Shown here piece by piece: positions 946 to 31,317 of a stretch of DNA of 64,000 bases; positions within the stretch are counted from its first letter, which is position 1, and each line of letters begins with the position of its first letter. The stretch is taken from the sequence record PZ452583.1. One strand, given 5' to 3'. A program made the position numbers and the translations under genes. Below the pieces are notes generated by a model that was not told the origin of the DNA, made no database searches, and saw only the letters and a program-made list of their open reading frames with translations. The stretch is from a phage.

Positions 946-3642
946 TCAGCCAAACAGGAAGTCTAACGAAGCTTTTTCTTCATAGTCCATACCAGCCGAT
1001 TCACACATGCCTGCAAGCGGTTTAACAAACGATTTTTGGAACAAAGTTGAGTAGTCAATCCAAGACAGTACGTCAGAACGAATTTCTTTTGGAAGTTCTG
1101 TGCCCGACGGCCAAGCAATGCACTTGTCACCAAATGGATTTCCTTCACGCAATGGAAGAACCATTACTTTATTTCCATCCAAAATTGGAGCTACACCTAA
1201 ACCGCTAACAGCTCGACGATAAGTTAGCACCCCACGAATATGGAACGGGCATTTAAATCCTGGCCAACCTTTATCATCATATTTCGCTATATCGTTCGCA
1301 GTTTTTACTTCAGCAATAACTTTATAGTCAAGTTGACGATATTCTTTCTCGAAGTTCTTGTAATATTCTTGGACAGACTCTTCACCTTCCTGAAGAATAC
1401 GACGAATACTTTCTTCGAGAGCTTCTTGGACCGCTTTAGGCGTTGAACTCTGCTGAGTTTCCATACCCATGATTTTTAGATGCGGTTCAGCAAATCGCTT
1501 ATCTTCCATATCATAAACGTTCAGAGCATAACGCTTTTTCGCTTTCCAAAATCCACCGACGCCCTTTGAACCAAGTGGAGGGCAAGAAATAGCTTCACGG
1601 TCCATATGCATCAGATGCTCGCGGTTATTCATATAATCACATAACTCACGATATGCAACATCAATCATAGGTTCCATCTTTTTCTTACCGAACTGATTCA
1701 TAAATTCAACCAAATCGTTCTGCTCTTTGAATCGGTCAAGACCAACTTTTTCAATAACTTTATCTACACAAACATATACCGAATCAGTATCACCTGCTGC
1801 AATGAAATCTTCGCCATTAGTTCCGCATACTTTATTCAGATATTCATTAATTTTACGAGCAATCCACTGAATACCAACTTGGCCGAAAATTGTGATAGCA
1901 GTAGCATTTCGCAAATCATAGTAGCGGAAATGAATATTACCAAGAGCACCGTAAAGGCTGTTAATAAGAATTTTACGGTTCAGCTGATTTGTATTAGCAA
2001 GTGTAGCTGCTTTTTCACATTCTTCAATCAAACTATTGAGAACAGATTCAGTATAATTCGATAGTTCATTTAAGAAATCATCACTGAACTTAACATATCG
2101 TTCAACTTCAGGTTTAGTTGAACAAGACCCTGCGCCTTTCATAATAATCTTTTTAATAGCTTCGGCATTCATTTCTTCAGCGAACATTTTCTTTTTCCAG
2201 TCTTTACGCTGGAAAAATACTTTAGCGATTTCCTTTGGAATGATACCTTCTTGATGCTTATCGTACATCCATCCATTCGGAGAACAAGAATATTCATCAC
2301 TCGGTTTAGGAGCTGTTCCTGTGATATATTCATGAATTGGATGAACTTTAAACTGACCACGAATAGTCTCAGGACTAATGTTAACCTGACGAATAATGCT
2401 CGGATACAGAGACGTCAAGTCAAAACTCATAATATATCGACGAGCAATTGGTTTAGGTTCAAACACAAATGCACCCGGAAAACTCTGTTTAACATGCGAA
2501 CCTTGTTGAGGAATAACCTTATGTTCACCTTTCAATGAGTTAAAAATAATGGCATCCCAGGTTTTAATAGGACTCATTACACCAGAAAAAGGCATTTTAG
2601 CGTAATAAGACATACTTAAAACTAGATCGATAAACCCGCGAATTTTATCAATTGCTTGAACTGATTCTACGTCAATGATGTTATAACTAATGTATCGTTG
2701 ATGATTAGTCTCACGAAGTTTATTAATAGGACCGTCGTATGGTAATTTACCTTTTTTGGTTTCATGCTGAGCAACTGATTCCAAAGAGAATGACGGCAAA
2801 TTAGTAAATGCGAATTTCTTATACAAATCTAAATAATCAAGAATAGATACGCCATCAATAGAATAAATTTCTTTGCTACCGTACATATTTTGGATAAGTT
2901 TAGATTTTACTCGACCGATTGGAGAGAAGCGTTTCATACTACGTTCACCGAGAACCATTTTAACGCGATTCATGATATACGGAACGTCAAATCCCTCAAT
3001 ATTCCAACCAGTAAAAATAGCAGGTCGTTTCTGTTCCCAAAGATTAATATATTCCATGAGCATATCACGCTCATTATCGAATGGCATATAAATTACTCGG
3101 TCAAGAATTTCTTGAGGAACTTCATCACCACCTTCACAGTCAAGCTTAGCAGCTAACTTTGCATCCCATTTTGATACTGAACCGTACATTGAATTCAAAA
3201 GGTCGAAAACATAAAAACGATCATCAATTGAATCGTAATGAGTGATAGCATCAATTTCATATTCAGCTTTCATTGGGTCAGGAAATTTATCACCAGTAAC
3301 CTCAATGTCACAGTTAGCTACACGAACAAATTTTCGGTCATAAACAATTTCTGAACCGTATGTATCACTGATATAAGCGAGTTTAAAATCGTTCATACCG
3401 AGAGCTTCGAGACCGATGTCTTCCATTCGTTTCATCCAATCTCGAGCATCTTTCATTGATGGAAATTTTTGAGGAGCGCAGTTTTTACCATAGATGTCTT
3501 TGTACTTTGACTCTTCCTTACAATGCCTAAACATAGTTGGAAGATATTCTACTTCACGAGTACGTTCATTTCCATTTTCATCAATATAACGCTCAACAAT
3601 GTTATTTCCGACTGTTTCAATAGAGATATAAAATTCTTTCAT
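946..3642 (-). CDS. 43: DNA polymerase gp43 (family B, with 3'-5' exonuclease)
   Basis: ORF track 898 aa; N-terminus MKEFYISIETVGNNIVERYIDENG as in T4 gp43; exonuclease DIE motif and polymerase GDTDS motif present; T4 size (898 aa). Confidence 0.97.
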   Translation of the reverse strand: MKEFYISIETVGNNIVERYIDENGNERTREVEYLPTMFRHCKEESKYKDIYGKNCAPQKFPSMKDARDWMKRMEDIGLEALGMNDFKLAYISDTYGSEIVYDRKFVRVANCDIEVTGDKFPDPMKAEYEIDAITHYDSIDDRFYVFDLLNSMYGSVSKWDAKLAAKLDCEGGDEVPQEILDRVIYMPFDNERDMLMEYINLWEQKRPAIFTGWNIEGFDVPYIMNRVKMVLGERSMKRFSPIGRVKSKLIQNMYGSKEIYSIDGVSILDYLDLYKKFAFTNLPSFSLESVAQHETKKGKLPYDGPINKLRETNHQRYISYNIIDVESVQAIDKIRGFIDLVLSMSYYAKMPFSGVMSPIKTWDAIIFNSLKGEHKVIPQQGSHVKQSFPGAFVFEPKPIARRYIMSFDLTSLYPSIIRQVNISPETIRGQFKVHPIHEYITGTAPKPSDEYSCSPNGWMYDKHQEGIIPKEIAKVFFQRKDWKKKMFAEEMNAEAIKKIIMKGAGSCSTKPEVERYVKFSDDFLNELSNYTESVLNSLIEECEKAATLANTNQLNRKILINSLYGALGNIHFRYYDLRNATAITIFGQVGIQWIARKINEYLNKVCGTNGEDFIAAGDTDSVYVCVDKVIEKVGLDRFKEQNDLVEFMNQFGKKKMEPMIDVAYRELCDYMNNREHLMHMDREAISCPPLGSKGVGGFWKAKKRYALNVYDMEDKRFAEPHLKIMGMETQQSSTPKAVQEALEESIRRILQEGEESVQEYYKNFEKEYRQLDYKVIAEVKTANDIAKYDDKGWPGFKCPFHIRGVLTYRRAVSGLGVAPILDGNKVMVLPLREGNPFGDKCIAWPSGTELPKEIRSDVLSWIDYSTLFQKSFVKPLAGMCESAGMDYEEKASLDFLFG

Positions 3643-26586: not shown

Positions 26587-27555
26587 TTATTTCAGAAGAG
26601 TAACCTCAGCGATTTCTTCCCAACCGTTTTTGTCGGTCATAATAAAGTCAGCAAGATAAAGCGCAGTACGCAGTGAAACATTGCGTAAACGATTAACATT
26701 GACTTTCATCCATGATAATGCTTTATAAGTTTCTTCATCAGAAAGACCGCGCTTTTGCATCATGTCAGTTGAAAGAATAACATCTTCAACCCTGACCATA
26801 ATTTCTTCATTAGTGTGAACACCCAAATCCAAATAAACTGAGCGGGACACTAATGCTTGTAAATGTGGAGCAAGTTTAGTACCACGGTCTAATTCGCGGT
26901 CAATGTCAACGTTTGTGATAAAAACAATCGTTCCTTTAAATTCAAACTCACGCTCAATGCCTTTTTCTTCTAAGTAAGAAGATGCGGTGCTCCAGCAGAC
27001 TTTACGGGTCTCTCCGGTGTCCAGAGCAGCTTTCAGAAGATTAAGAATGTCCATATCAGAGAAAACATCCACATCATCAATCAAAAGGACAGAATTCTCT
27101 TCACGATTATTCCAAAGCTGTTCATAAAGACCGATACCAGAGATTTTACCATTAATGCTTTTATATTCAATGTATCCAATATCATTTGCTTTATTTAAAG
27201 CTTTATCTAAAGAATATGTTTTACCTATACCTGCCGCGCCAGAGATAATTAATGAACGAATATTTCCATTAATAATACCATTCGTCATCATTCCCATAAC
27301 ATTAAATCTTTTATTAATGCGGGTTTTCATATCTTCATATGATTCTTTAACTTCTTCAACTTTTACACCATCATATGAAATGTCTGATTTGTAAACCCAA
27401 ACACCGCGACGTTTACCATCAATTTCAACAAAAACTTTACCATCTCCTTGTGCATCTACCGGAGCATTATCTGGGAACCATTCACCTAAGAGCTCAAAAG
27501 TTCCAGAGATTTCTTTACCGAAGTAGATACCCTTATTGATAGTTACAGTTTTCAT
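26587..27555 (-). CDS. Predicted P-loop ATPase (AAA-like)
   Basis: Track ORF 26587..27621; supported start ATG 27555..27553 (MKTVTINKG) after GGAGAA; Walker A GAAGIGKT, Walker B-like LLIDDVD. Confidence 0.65.
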   Translation of the reverse strand: MKTVTINKGIYFGKEISGTFELLGEWFPDNAPVDAQGDGKVFVEIDGKRRGVWVYKSDISYDGVKVEEVKESYEDMKTRINKRFNVMGMMTNGIINGNIRSLIISGAAGIGKTYSLDKALNKANDIGYIEYKSINGKISGIGLYEQLWNNREENSVLLIDDVDVFSDMDILNLLKAALDTGETRKVCWSTASSYLEEKGIEREFEFKGTIVFITNVDIDRELDRGTKLAPHLQALVSRSVYLDLGVHTNEEIMVRVEDVILSTDMMQKRGLSDEETYKALSWMKVNVNRLRNVSLRTALYLADFIMTDKNGWEEIAEVTLLK

Positions 27556-27589
27556 TTTATTCTCCAAATCCGTATCAGTTGATAGTTGT

Positions 27590-27619
27590 ATAGTACCATA
27601 AAGCTTTATGCTTGTAAAC
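27590..27619 (-). promoter_or_regulatory. T4 early-promoter-like element
   Basis: Minus strand GTTTAC, 18-nt spacer, TACTAT, upstream of the ATPase gene start. Confidence 0.45.
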
Positions 27620-27640
27620 AACTTTGTGAAAAATTTTTGA

Positions 27641-27667
27641 AATAAAAAAGGGAGCCCGAAGGCTCCC
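27641..27667 (-). terminator. Intrinsic terminator (C(UUCG)G-type hairpin plus U-tract)
   Basis: Minus strand GGGAGCCUUCGGGCUCCC followed by UUUUUUAUUU, just downstream of the 27670..28683 gene. Confidence 0.6.
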
Positions 27668-27669
27668 TA

Positions 27670-28683
27670 TCATTTATAATAACTTCGATGGTTTTCAAGA
27701 TAGACCTTCTCAAGGAAGTCATCCCAGAAACCCATGTCTACTGTTTTAGGCATACCATTCTTAGAAGCGTCAGTAGATGCTGCTTCTACTTGATCGACCA
27801 CATCTTCCAAAAACTCTTGAACTGTTTTAAATGGATGTTTACCCAACTTCACGTCGAGAATAAATGGAGCATCTTGGAGTGGATAAACCAAGTCACCAGT
27901 TTTGTAAATTTCCAATAGTTGAAGTCCACCACGACAAGCATGACTCAGAGCTTTCCAGTCAATACCTTCATTGGCTTCGGCCTTACGAGCACGTTCACCA
28001 TATTCAGCATCTAATTTGTTCAGTGACTGCTTAAGCTCAATAAGAGAAAGCGTTGTCTGATATTTACGACCCAACACAGTGTAGAACGTTTGTGGGCCTG
28101 TTTTCTCATGATTATGGAACACCCATTCACAGAATTCGTTTTCTGGAAGACGATGCTTAATATCTTCAACTTTAGTGCGACGCTGCTTAATGGAACCGTC
28201 TTCTTGGTAATCAACCCATTGCTCAGGGATTTGATTAACTACTTTCAATACATCACGTAATGCAGCCAAACGAGAACCCTTGACACCGTATTTAGAAGCT
28301 TGCTTGCGGACATATCCTAAATATGATTTCATGTTAGTCGTATAAAAACGAGAACGGTTGTCTTGAATAAACTTCCACACATCAGGCAAATCTGATTTAA
28401 CTACTAGTTCAGGTGGAGTGTGAAGCATATCTAATGCTACGGTTTCACCATCTGCTGCTAATTTAAAGAAATATTTAAGACTGTATAGTTCATGGTCAAT
28501 ATCATCTTTAGTGTTTTTAGATGATGTGTTGTTAGTGTTTTTACTCATGTGCTCTTTGACATTTCCGATAAGAATATCGCGAGCAGGAGGAACAAAGATT
28601 TCTTTAAAATCTACATCAGATTCTGGGGTAGAAGTTCCATAAAGATGACTACCAAAATAGCTTTTCATTACTGTTTTCATCAT
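27670..28683 (-). CDS. Predicted nucleotidyltransferase-fold protein
   Basis: ORF track 337 aa; N-terminal GS-x10-DVD pattern (YFGSHLYGTSTPESDVDF) typical of Pol-beta-type nucleotidyltransferases. Confidence 0.55.
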   Translation of the reverse strand: MMKTVMKSYFGSHLYGTSTPESDVDFKEIFVPPARDILIGNVKEHMSKNTNNTSSKNTKDDIDHELYSLKYFFKLAADGETVALDMLHTPPELVVKSDLPDVWKFIQDNRSRFYTTNMKSYLGYVRKQASKYGVKGSRLAALRDVLKVVNQIPEQWVDYQEDGSIKQRRTKVEDIKHRLPENEFCEWVFHNHEKTGPQTFYTVLGRKYQTTLSLIELKQSLNKLDAEYGERARKAEANEGIDWKALSHACRGGLQLLEIYKTGDLVYPLQDAPFILDVKLGKHPFKTVQEFLEDVVDQVEAASTDASKNGMPKTVDMGFWDDFLEKVYLENHRSYYK

Positions 28684-29141
28684 TCAGCCTTATATTCAAT
28701 AACAGGACATACTTTAGCTTTACGAGCTTTTAAAAATTCAACGATAACCGATTTCTTGGGTTGAATAGGAGGTAAACCTTTATACGCCCTATCAATATTT
28801 TCTACGTGTAAAGCATAATCCTTTTTCCATTTATAATCTTTATATTTTTCACGCAAATGTGCAGGAATAACAAATGAACCGATAATAAGTAAAACAACCA
28901 AAAGCGCAAGTATAAATGCTGATGGAAGCAAAGTCCATAAACTACCAAAAATAAGCCAACGTTGTAGGCTTTCTGCACAAATAATTGTTAGCCCTACGAG
29001 TATAGCACATCCAAAAATAGAAACGAAAAATGTAGGAATGGCAATAGACCAAAAATATGCGCATAGTGTCTTAGGTCGTTGCCATTCATCGTTAAACAAT
29101 TTGAATAATTTATAGTGCCAAGAGTTTTCATTAATAATCAT
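28680..29141 (-). CDS. Hypothetical membrane protein
   Basis: ORF track 153 aa; multiple hydrophobic segments. Confidence 0.55.
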   Translation of the reverse strand: MIINENSWHYKLFKLFNDEWQRPKTLCAYFWSIAIPTFFVSIFGCAILVGLTIICAESLQRWLIFGSLWTLLPSAFILALLVVLLIIGSFVIPAHLREKYKDYKWKKDYALHVENIDRAYKGLPPIQPKKSVIVEFLKARKAKVCPVIEYKAE

Positions 29142-29143
29142 AA

Positions 29144-29665
29144 TTATCCTCTCATTGAAGGCGTAACAGTTGTTAAATACTTAATCATAGCTTCAGCTTC
29201 TGATTTTGATAATGAAATTTCTCCATTGTTTTGACGAATAGAAATAAAATCCGGATGACGGTCACCACCAGCTTTTAAAACACACATATAAGTATCAACT
29301 TCATCTTCAATATTTGAAATGATTGAAGCAGTTCCACATGAATGCGGTTTTTGATAAATCAATGCAGCTTTTCTTCCGCCATTTGACTGTTCATAAACTT
29401 TTAATACATCAAACAAATCACTTCTTTTATCAATAGCTAAAATGTTATTTTCATCTTCAATGTTAAATCCTTCGGATACTTCATAAAGTGTCACCCATAA
29501 ATCGCCAATATCAATAACAGCGTTCACTTTTCCATGACTTTCAAGAGCATGACAAATTTTCTTGATTTCGTCATAACTCATTTTAATAATATCATCTCCT
29601 TGAATAAGAAAGATGTCATTTTTAAATTCAACACGAATTAAACCACTTCCACTTGAAATAAACAT
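29144..29665 (-). CDS. Hypothetical protein (paralog-like to 29672..30226)
   Basis: ORF track 173 aa; C-terminus EAEAMIKYLTTVTPSM resembles the neighbour's EAIALKTYLDSVIPTM. Confidence 0.55.
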   Translation of the reverse strand: MFISSGSGLIRVEFKNDIFLIQGDDIIKMSYDEIKKICHALESHGKVNAVIDIGDLWVTLYEVSEGFNIEDENNILAIDKRSDLFDVLKVYEQSNGGRKAALIYQKPHSCGTASIISNIEDEVDTYMCVLKAGGDRHPDFISIRQNNGEISLSKSEAEAMIKYLTTVTPSMRG

Positions 29666-29671
29666 ATTTCC

Positions 29672-30226
29672 TCACTTTGAAATCATAGTTGGAATGACAG
29701 AATCAAGATAAGTCTTTAGCGCAATAGCTTCGTCTTTGGTAAATGTGACAATATGTGCTCGAGAATCATCATTTTGGCGAACAAGTACGACATCGCCATC
29801 TTCATAAGAAGTCTTGACATCCAAAGTCGTAGTATAATTTGCAGCTACTGGATTAATAATGTTAGCACCGCGATCTTTAGCCCATTGAAGTTTAGCCTTT
29901 TCAGGTGTTTCGACTGTTTCAGATTCCAAGAATTCTTTCACCTTGGCAACGAATGTTGCCCAATTGTTAATAGAAAGACACATAAATTCAGTTTCAATAT
30001 TACCGCCGTAAAGGCCACGATAAAAACGAACTTGGAGGTCGTCTGTAATATTAGTTACACCGGTAACTCCTGAGGGAGCATAAGATAAAATCGCAGCCAG
30101 TTCCATAGGAAGAATAGTAATACTATCGTCTTCCTGCGTCAGAACGTATACATTACCGCGTTTTTCGATAACTAGGTCACCGAACAAATCAGTTGTTTCA
30201 ATTACAGCTTTCATATTATTTACCAA
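29672..30226 (-). CDS. Hypothetical protein (paralog-like to 29144..29665)
   Basis: ORF track 184 aa. Confidence 0.55.
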   Translation of the reverse strand: MVNNMKAVIETTDLFGDLVIEKRGNVYVLTQEDDSITILPMELAAILSYAPSGVTGVTNITDDLQVRFYRGLYGGNIETEFMCLSINNWATFVAKVKEFLESETVETPEKAKLQWAKDRGANIINPVAANYTTTLDVKTSYEDGDVVLVRQNDDSRAHIVTFTKDEAIALKTYLDSVIPTMISK

Positions 30227-30401
30227 TTAAAGTTTCAATATAAGAATCGAGATTTACTTTAGCTTCTTCCATAAGAGTTTTGTATTTAATCTTGTTGGCA
30301 TGTCCGGAAAAAGCTGATTCATCAATAATTGTTGATGTATGAACAGCTTTACTATACGTCTCAATTAATTCTCTTAATTTAAAAGCCTGCTCACTTGTCA
30401 T
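30216..30401 (-). CDS. Hypothetical protein
   Basis: ORF track 61 aa; ATG overlaps the stop of an upstream small ORF. Confidence 0.45.
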   Translation of the reverse strand: MTSEQAFKLRELIETYSKAVHTSTIIDESAFSGHANKIKYKTLMEEAKVNLDSYIETLIGK

Positions 30402-30505
30402 TACATACTCCTCTGAATCATATCAATAATGTTATTCACCAAATTATAAGTAAACATTGGGTAATTATATTGAATCATTACATACACAACAAACAAAACT
30501 TTCAT
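30401..30505 (-). CDS. Hypothetical small hydrophobic peptide (34 aa), below ORF-track threshold
   Basis: Reverse complement reads GGAGAAGAGA-ATG...MKVLFVVYVMIQYNYPMFTYNLVNNIIDMIQRSM-stop, stop overlapping the next ATG; early-promoter-like element upstream at about 30510..30550. Confidence 0.3.
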   Translation of the reverse strand: MKVLFVVYVMIQYNYPMFTYNLVNNIIDMIQRSM

Positions 30506-30728
30506 TCTCTTCTCCTTGACAGTTGACAAGATTACTATACCATAACCTTGCCAACTTGTAAACCGTTAAATGTTGTTTTCAATAAAATTTTGAAGCTTTG
30601 TGTGAGCATCAACCATGATTTTCATTTCTTCCTTTGCGAAAGCTGTACCTCTTTCCCGAGAAGAACACTCATAGTCAGAAACTGCATTAGCATATTCTTC
30701 AATTAGTTTCATTAAAAACATCTGCTTT

Positions 30729-30923
30729 TCAGTTTTCATTATTCCACCTAATCATTTCAAGATATTGAACTAACTTAGCTTTAGATTTGTCCAAATCCTT
30801 TTTAGCTGCTTCTATACCGTCGTATGAATATCCTTCACAATGCTCAACTGCTAATTGGTATGAATCTATTTCAATATCATGCGCTAATTTAATGATTTTT
30901 TCAAACTGTTCGCGTGTTAGCAT
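30729..30923 (-). CDS. Hypothetical protein
   Basis: ORF track 64 aa. Confidence 0.45.
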   Translation of the reverse strand: MLTREQFEKIIKLAHDIEIDSYQLAVEHCEGYSYDGIEAAKKDLDKSKAKLVQYLEMIRWNNEN

Positions 30924-30925
30924 AA

Positions 30926-31129
30926 TTAAACTCTCGTATTATGATCGATAATTTCATCAAGAAACATATCTAACGCTTCTAAAGCATTATCAACTTTAGC
31001 TTCAAGTTCATCAATGCCTTTATTTGCAATGCCTGACGAAAACCAAGCAAAGTCACTAAGTTCCTCGTCTGCTTTACGAATTAAAGCTACCAATTCCTTA
31101 ATTTTATCCGCTTGTTCGATACTAATCAT
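30926..31129 (-). CDS. Hypothetical protein
   Basis: Track ORF 30926..31165; supported start ATG 31129..31127 ([11 protein letters not shown]) overlapping the upstream stop. Confidence 0.45.
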   Translation of the reverse strand: MISIEQADKIKELVALIRKADEELSDFAWFSSGIANKGIDELEAKVDNALEALDMFLDEIIDHNTRV

Positions 31130-31317
31130 TATTCCACCACATATGAAAGAGAGAATATTGCACACGCCATGTGAGTTGCAACTTCATCACACATATTATA
31201 ACGTTTCTTAAGAAGTTCTACAAGTTCTTCACTAGTAACTTCATCCATGTCGACGAAAAAATCACCATTAATGATGACGTAGATATTTCCTTCTTGATTA
31301 AGTGCTTCAATTTTCAT
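31129..31317 (-). CDS. Hypothetical protein
   Basis: Track ORF 31129..31362; supported start ATG 31317..31315 ([10 protein letters not shown]) after GAGGAGAA; early-promoter-like element upstream at about 31330..31372. Confidence 0.45.

Follow-up and report, generated by a model that had tools for sequence, protein, structure and literature searches.

We describe a pair of adjacent minus-strand genes in a 64,000-nucleotide stretch of phage DNA (sequence record PZ452583.1), which was analyzed as a whole and is referred to below as the window. The upstream gene is the ortholog of mobD.1, while the downstream gene, the ortholog of RB32ORF097c, encodes a paralog of 173 amino acids (aa); sequence comparison assigns both to MobD.1/y05I, a small, phage-only protein family restricted to the Tevenvirinae (Table 1). 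The window is Tequatrovirus DNA: a megablast search with positions 28600-30500 matched 506 phage records, the best being MLF4 and RB18-like genomes, with 99% identity over the whole query. The annotation of RB18 lists, on the same strand and in transcription order, mobD.2, a 61-aa gene, mobD.1, RB32ORF097c, RB32ORF096c and nrdC.11, and the synteny of the window is identical.

The original prediction, made from the sequence alone, had described two adjacent open reading frames of 173 and 184 aa with similar length and composition. Both reading frames are present on the minus strand at this place and the length of 173 aa stands, whereas that of the upstream protein has to be corrected. This protein most likely comprises 180 aa, starting at ATG 30214, because this codon lies one base past the TAA of the preceding DUF7438 gene, the RB18 annotation uses it, and all homologs have N-termini that agree with it. 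The 184-aa reading would begin at TTG 30226, within the upstream DUF7438 gene, and is unlikely. The similarity in length and composition is borne out, with 173 versus 180 aa and isoelectric points (pI) of 4.9 versus 4.6.

Table 1. Coordinates of the two paralogs, their predicted domains and surrounding features in the window.
Feature	Position	Strand	Remarks
mobD.1 ortholog	29672..30214	-	180 aa + stop; RB18/'class A' allele; Pfam T4_y05I_N + T4_y05I_C
MobD.1 N-terminal domain	29906..30214	-	residues 1-103; two predicted beta-beta-beta-beta-alpha repeats, PUR/Whirly-like (type I PC4-like); net charge -9
MobD.1 C-terminal domain	29675..29905	-	residues 104-180; predicted third repeat, five strands + long helix; AlphaFold2 pLDDT 56-82
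Shared motif DEAIALKTYLDSVIPTM, MobD.1	29684..29734	-	C-terminal helix of repeat III; model helix 160-177
Approximate recombination joint inside mobD.1	29807	.	megablast coverage boundary at query position 663-664, most records
Second paralog, RB32ORF097c ortholog	29144..29665	-	173 aa + stop; Pfam T4_y05I_N + T4_y05I_C
173-aa paralog, N-terminal domain	29372..29665	-	residues 1-98; predicted PUR/Whirly-like; net charge -8
173-aa paralog, C-terminal domain	29147..29371	-	predicted third repeat; low-confidence AlphaFold2 region, pLDDT 40-73
Shared motif SEAEAMIKYLTTVTPSM, 173-aa paralog	29153..29203	-	C-terminal helix of repeat III; model helix 154-171
Membrane protein, RB32ORF096c family	28680..29141	-	153 aa; phrog_944 'membrane protein'
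Sigma-70/early-type promoter-like site	30534..30562	-	TTTACA-17-TATAGT with TG, upstream of mobD.2; best minus-strand score in 26-33 kb
Intrinsic-terminator-like hairpin	27649..27668	-	8 bp, 6 GC, then T-run; just past nrdC.11
DUF7438 genes (mobD.2a, mobD.3, mobD.4, 61-aa gene)	30216..30401, 30566..30739, 30729..30923, ~30926..31129	-	

Homology of the pair and family membership

The similarity that had been noticed at the C-termini of the two proteins extends over their full length. The two motifs, SEAEAMIKYLTTVTPSM and DEAIALKTYLDSVIPTM, translate exactly as originally quoted and are identical at 8 of 17 residues. BLASTP aligned residues 8-171 of the 173-aa protein with residues 12-177 of MobD.1 (28% identity, 46% positives, E-value 1e-7). 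When Smith-Waterman scores were set against those of 2000 shuffles, the full-length pair reached a z of 11.6 and the pair minus its last 20-22 residues a z of 5.5, with 0/2000 shuffles attaining the score in either case; the N-domains alone gave a z of 4.6, a score attained by 1/2000 shuffles. Pairwise alignment thus finds significant similarity far past the last 15 residues, and BLASTP, the shuffle controls and the Pfam matches given below rule out a chance similarity restricted to the tail and confirm the suggestion of a tandem pair of paralogs. No third copy of the family was detected in the window with the family hidden Markov model in all six frames.

Both proteins carry the same two Pfam domains. 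T4_y05I_N (PF24449, gathering score 24.9 bits) matched the 173-aa protein with 118.5 bits (E 2e-34) and MobD.1 with 112.8 bits (E 1e-32). It is followed by T4_y05I_C (PF24448, gathering score 27 bits), which matched residues 102-171 of the former with 81.2 bits (E 7e-23) and residues 108-177 of the latter with 63.3 bits (E 2.8e-17). Both proteins also match phrog_1502 (E 1e-67). The motif seen in the original prediction corresponds to the signature K-x-E-A-x-x-[LM]-x-x-Y-L-x-x-V-x-P-[ST]-M in the helix of the predicted third repeat, and in MobD.1 this helix holds the family-invariant K, E, A, Y and L columns. Other Straboviridae encode stand-alone C-domain proteins of 65-89 aa, every one of which has [TS]-K-x-E-A-x-A-L-V-x-Y-L-N-S-V-I-P-[ST]-M at its C-terminus; the motif is therefore a signature of the whole family and is not peculiar to this pair.

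The distribution of the family is narrow. Only 24 clusters at E<=1e-3 were returned by a profile search run exhaustively against 1.84 billion representative proteins, and tblastn matches came only from T4-like phages. The family slot lies in the nrdC.11 - rI early region in the window, T4, ime09, FP43, VR7, KpV477 and SEA1. The 173-aa paralog gave tblastn matches in 482 phage records, about 434 of them at 89-100% aa identity and the remainder representing cross-matches to single-copy homologs of other genera. Homologs of MobD.1 were found in 733 records, with 74 at >=90% identity, 152 at 60-80% (mostly the Mosigvirus type) and 507 below 60%, the last being the T4 type at about 48% identity.

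T4 MobD.1 (UniProt Y05I_BPT4) resembles both window proteins in its Pfam domains, their order and its length, and T4 mobD.1 has its positional ortholog in the upstream window gene. The window MobD.1 is, however, only ~48% identical to the T4 protein, since it carries a different N-terminal allele that is nearer to the Mosigvirus type (66-76%), and T4 is without the 173-aa paralog, which is replaced there by mobD. The pair itself is already annotated in public records and falls within curated Pfam families that have no assigned function: in the GenBank record of RB14, RB32ORF097c carries the note 'similar to mobD.1' and RB32ORF096c the note 'replaces mobD', RB51 also uses 'similar to mobD.1', and ime09 names the genes mobD.1 and mobD.1a. 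These are the same gene pair as in the window, at 93-100% identity in ~434 Tequatrovirus records, and nothing substantive differs. Our literature search found no functional study of the family; 'mobD.1' appeared only in a table of insertion sites in a review of homing endonucleases, and 'y05I' returned irrelevant matches only. NCBIfam and PADLOC models gave no match for the two proteins and three of their neighbours.

Several public records of these genes call for caution. In some of them, that of T6 (AP018814) included, members of the MobD.1 family go under names such as 'molybdopterin-guanine dinucleotide biosynthesis protein MobD', 'integrase and recombinase' or 'prohead core protein', and the neighbouring 61-aa DUF7438 protein appears in some records as 'helicase loader' or 'kilA anti-repressor'. 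These labels look like propagated misannotations and receive no support from our family searches. In RB14, mobD.1 (931-1494 of the fetched locus) is split into pieces of 137 and 52 aa, reflecting either a pseudogene or an error. A T2 'escape mutant' record (PV648364.1, 1940-3481) in which both paralogs are frameshifted was considered as a lead and rejected; the frameshifts are probably sequencing errors, because the neighbouring genes are broken as well. An apparent 'T2 variant' of the 173-aa protein with 55.6% identity proved to be an artefact of out-of-frame translation.

Predicted domain architecture

AlphaFold2 models of the two proteins, built from a 24-sequence alignment, had mean confidence scores (pLDDT) of 75 and 79, with the N-domains at about 85-93 and the C-domains at 40-82. 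The predicted N-domain consists of two successive units of four strands and a helix, and the predicted C-domain of five strands and one long helix that bears the shared motif. On these models, repeats I and II would form a single Pur-alpha/Whirly-like domain (PC4-like 'type I'), with repeat III as the C-terminal domain. The relation between repeat I and the C-domain is also visible at the level of sequence profiles, where hhalign gave an E-value of 3.6e-6 and a score of 29.7, against a column-shuffle null of 8.2 ± 1.8 with a maximum of 15.6 (0/150 shuffles near the observed score). Aligned with the stand-alone C-domain proteins alone, repeat I gave an E-value of 5.6e-6. The pattern common to repeat I and the C-domain comprises [LI]-[TR]-Q, an acidic turn, a strand and then the helix.

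In Gelderlandvirus and Jiaodavirus, this slot is taken by single-repeat genes of 65-89 aa arranged in tandem pairs. Gelderlandvirus SEA1 (2501-2957 of the fetched locus) carries a pair of y05I_C-like genes (78 and 76 aa), the second of which has diverged (hhalign E 1.8e-7), and in Jiaodavirus KpV477 (2314-2725 of the fetched locus) a DUF7189 gene of 63 aa precedes a y05I_C gene. The KpV477 DUF7189 protein shows a weak relation to repeat I (E 1e-4) and to the C-domain, and DUF7189 may be a further member of this repeat superfamily. Sequence searches of solved structures gave only an insignificant match, to CsoS1D at E 0.58, and a BFVD fold search recovered only family members, with no functional lead.

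Exchange at the locus, selection and origin of the pair

The presence and absence of the two genes, which the original prediction had proposed to compare across T-even phages, varies: the slot contains both genes, either one alone, or a hybrid. Both genes are found in the window, RB18, T6, ime09, wV7 and others. MobD.1 alone is followed by a membrane-protein gene in the Mosigvirus phages FP43 and LF82-3 and in Gaprivervirus VR7, and by mobD in T4. A divergent gene of the 173-aa type is the sole family gene at one locus (L024), and the hybrid is the sole family gene at three others (L021-L023, Logan metagenome contigs from several samples). The mobD gene was present at >=95% identity in ~47 records, versus ~434 with the 173-aa gene.

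Directly 3' of mobD.1, T4 (NC_000866) retains the beginning of the 173-aa gene, with its Shine-Dalgarno sequence, its ATG and its first six codons (MFISSG); the HNH cassette of mobD starts after this relic (~2952-3025 of the fetched T4 locus, aligned to 29647-29671 of the window). The relic shows that the T4 arrangement is the derived state, in which the mobD homing endonuclease has replaced both the 173-aa gene and the membrane-protein gene. The hybrid gene (P0011, L021 3001-3540) is ~97-100% identical to T4-type mobD.1 over nucleotides 1-388, and its nucleotides 378-540 match the 173-aa gene, so that mobD.1 contributes the N-domain together with the beginning of the C-domain, and the 173-aa paralog the rest. 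The two parts are joined in register through ~10 shared bases, and the gene looks like the product of an unequal crossover between the tandem paralogs. As the hybrid is in register, it confirms that the homology of the two genes is in register too, and shows that the N- and C-domains can be exchanged as modules. A further boundary lies inside mobD.1 near 29807: on its 3' side, the last ~45 codons of mobD.1 and the whole 173-aa gene are ~95% conserved across Tequatrovirus, while its 5' side is allele-specific. These comparisons show that the locus varies by module exchange, as seen in the N-terminal allele swaps near 29807, the mobD replacement in T4 and the hybrid gene.

The original prediction had also regarded the pair as a signature of diversifying selection, and this claim is not supported. 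We calculated pairwise ratios of nonsynonymous to synonymous divergence (dN/dS) by the Nei-Gojobori method; since a locus scan of IMG/VR yielded only 6 loci, the orthologs (13 for the 173-aa gene, 17 for mobD.1) were drawn from GenBank phage records. For the 173-aa gene, the ratio of means was 0.18 and the median 0.15; for MobD.1, values were 0.23-0.30 within allele classes and 0.36 across all classes. Gene-wide pairwise dN/dS was 0.15-0.18 for the 173-aa gene and 0.22-0.35 for MobD.1. Values of about 0.15-0.35 were obtained whichever gene, class or domain was compared, and the highest value, 0.88, came from a single segment of 35 codons. Both genes are under purifying selection at the gene-average level, and the 173-aa protein is >=89% identical in ~434 records. 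The MobD.1 slot holds at least three deep allele classes in genomes that are otherwise ~95% identical. When the window MobD.1 is compared with T4-type alleles, the first ~140 codons show saturated dS (1.3 to >2), which falls to 0.2-0.4 over the last 48 aligned codons, matching the ~29807 boundary; Mosigvirus alleles are closer throughout (dS 0.35-0.6, 66-76% aa identity). The saturated dS shows that these are old alleles shuffled by recombination and not the outcome of fast adaptive change.

The same data bear on how the pair arose. The local duplication followed by divergence that had been suggested is plausible given the adjacency of the genes, but the data are also compatible with the acquisition of a distant family member, as the 173-aa lineage falls outside all MobD.1 alleles in neighbour-joining trees of each domain, with 22-34% identity to them. 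The 173-aa protein is 28% identical to its neighbour and 29% identical to the homolog of Gaprivervirus VR7, and this equal distance to the neighbour and to homologs of another genus places the split far back in time. A recent local duplication with fast divergence under diversifying, arms-race-like selection would account for two adjacent and co-oriented genes, for a MobD.1 slot with three or more deep allele classes, and for the position of the locus in a plastic region of non-essential early genes. We consider it very improbable: it is largely refuted at the gene-average level by dN/dS of 0.15-0.35, the alleles are old since dS between their classes is saturated, the 173-aa paralog is nearly invariant across its ~434 records, and the paralogs are no nearer to each other than to homologs of other genera.

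A more serious competitor, although still an unlikely one, is that the second copy arrived by horizontal transfer, as a distant family member that entered a recombination hot spot beside mobD.1 together with the downstream membrane-protein gene. The depth of the 173-aa lineage, about that of Gaprivervirus/Dhakavirus-type homologs, agrees with this, as does the demonstrable exchange of the slot contents (the mobD replacement, the hybrid gene and the slot with only the 173-aa type). In other genera, moreover, a single y05I-family gene lies directly upstream of the same membrane-protein gene, so that this module appears to be the conserved unit and mobD.1 the extra gene in Tequatrovirus. Against the transfer, our searches found no donor lineage nearer to the 173-aa protein than 40-56% identity; the recurrent tandem pairs of other genera fit repeated local duplication equally well.

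Proposed function, transcription context and significance

Pur-alpha is described as the only known protein that joins type I and type II PC4-like domains, and it dimerises via its repeat III (PMC7549692). The family has a similar layout, with a two-repeat domain and a third single repeat, corresponding to the intramolecular repeats I and II and the dimerising repeat III of Pur-alpha (PURA). The two differ in that sequence identity is only 5-12%, and in that the N-domain of the family is acidic and that of Pur-alpha basic. Judged from the models, the relation is a resemblance in fold and layout and not a demonstrated membership. By analogy with repeat III of Pur-alpha and with single-repeat PC4-like proteins, the C-terminal repeat may pair with a second C-terminal repeat, and we propose that it is a type II PC4-like repeat completed by intermolecular dimerisation; the two window proteins would then act as homo- or heterodimers. 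Such dimerisation is suggested because the fold family completes domains from two single repeats, because tandem pairs recur in the slot, and because the model confidence of the C-domain is lower despite its higher conservation.

The two proteins might be classical single-stranded DNA- or RNA-binding regulators, like Pur-alpha, Whirly, MRP1/MRP2 or ChmC, whose dimers or hetero-oligomers bind, unwind or chaperone nucleic acid early in infection. The Pfam label 'putative transcription factor' points this way, the top fold matches of the predicted structures are all nucleic-acid binders, and a review of PC4-like domains stresses their common nucleic-acid-binding surfaces (PMC7549692). Phage ChmC, of Whirly fold, binds RNA, and the paralogs MRP1 and MRP2 form heterotetramers. 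Whirly, MRP1-MRP2 and ChmC bind, however, via conserved Lys/Arg patches on the sheet, and such patches are lacking in the MobD.1 family. Whole-protein pI is 4.6-4.9 and that of the N-domains 4.2-4.6; the N-domain was negatively charged in each of the 21 family members examined, with net charges between -3 and -13; and its conserved columns, taken as a sequence-level proxy for the binding surface, include 10 acidic, 4 aromatic and a single basic one, located on a helix and not on the sheet. By this charge proxy, the N-domains do not present a basic/aromatic nucleic-acid-binding sheet. The stand-alone C-domain homologs are acidic-rich as well, and neither protein matches the PurA, Whirly or PC4 families of Pfam at E<=1. 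Nucleic-acid binding of the classical kind therefore appears doubtful to us.

Because the N-domains are uniformly acidic, we favour, tentatively and with low confidence, a dimeric acidic early accessory protein that would bind a partner or mimic nucleic acid. The N-domain would engage a protein partner or imitate nucleic acid in a non-essential early function. SsgA-like proteins illustrate that the PC4-like/Whirly fold can serve protein recruitment. The surface of SsgB is said to be electronegative according to a 2009 structure paper. SsgA-like proteins (SsgB, PDB 3cm1) are, on the other hand, trimeric cell-division proteins of actinomycetes and have no sequence relationship to the MobD.1 family. 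With respect to dispensability, the nrdC.11-mobD.3 fragment could be removed in a T4 genome reduction (PMC9825161), and T4 mobD.1 is thus dispensable in the laboratory. A bolder version, which we regard as improbable, is that the MobD.1 family is, after Pur-alpha, the second type I plus type II PC4-like protein, with its N-domain turned into an acidic mimic or decoy, and that homo- or heterodimers of the paralogs sequester a host nucleic-acid-binding factor. The target of such a decoy could possibly be a defence or RNA/DNA-processing protein, perhaps bound jointly with the downstream membrane protein, and in that case the host targets would differ between the deep allele classes of the N-domain.

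The two genes belong to a same-strand block consisting of mobD.2, a DUF7438 gene, mobD.1, the 173-aa paralog, the membrane-protein gene and nrdC.11, and the genes between the promoter-like and terminator-like sites overlap or stand 0-6 nt apart. These sites fit one early transcription unit that would hold both paralogs and run from the candidate promoter to the candidate terminator (30562-27649). Sigma-70-like sites are no more numerous in the region than in shuffled sequence, and in wV7 a rho-independent terminator is annotated at the corresponding position. In five genera (Tequatrovirus, Mosigvirus, Gaprivervirus, Jiaodavirus and Gelderlandvirus), the y05I-family gene or genes are followed directly on their 3' side by the gene for a membrane protein of 150-167 aa, and this conserved pairing suggests a functional link. 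The membrane protein has an invariant N-terminus (xINxxSWH...P..LC.YFW) and matches no Pfam family. Immediately upstream of the MobD.1 pair lies a second tandem paralog array, formed by four small genes of 57-67 aa, all DUF7438 (PF24219), within 30216-31132 on the minus strand. Of the downstream neighbours (26587-28683, minus strand), nrdC.11 matches the RlaP nucleotidyltransferase family of Pfam (E 4e-11), and nrdC.10 gave only weak AAA/STAND-NTPase matches below Pfam cut-offs.

Taken as a whole, the explanation that we consider probable is that the two genes are ancient tandem members of the MobD.1/y05I family, with three Pur-alpha-like repeats, held under purifying selection and having, more tentatively, a dimeric, acidic accessory role. 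Several observations count against parts of it. Repeat II showed no sequence similarity to repeats I or III in hhalign, so that the description of three homologous repeats rests, for repeat II, on the fold. Gene-average dN/dS is compatible with a small number of positively selected sites. Four basic columns are conserved in the C-domain, compatible with nucleic-acid binding, and most characterised proteins of the PC4-like/Whirly fold, including phage ChmC, bind nucleic acid. An obligate heterodimer of the two paralogs is rejected, each type being alone in some phages (MobD.1 in T4, Mosigvirus and Gaprivervirus; the 173-aa type at L024). Finally, the promoter-like and terminator-like sites are consensus matches only.

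The pair belongs to an ordinary, already catalogued and non-essential family, and our additions are modest: the corrected start codon, the interpretation of the proteins as three Pur-alpha-like repeats of which the N-domain is acidic, the joint at which alleles are exchanged, the T4 relic and the in-register hybrid. For annotation, the upstream protein should be given as 180 and not 184 aa, the unsupported public labels deserve correction, and the flag of diversifying selection should be dropped. The locus provides a worked example of accessory variation in T4-like phages, combining allele swaps at a defined joint, a homing-endonuclease cassette with a six-codon relic and a paralog hybrid. In addition, the structural hypothesis, under which the proteins would consist of three Pur-alpha-like repeats, have an acidic N-domain and dimerise via the signature helix, is testable and may serve as a starting point for the function of this orphan family of T4 early proteins.

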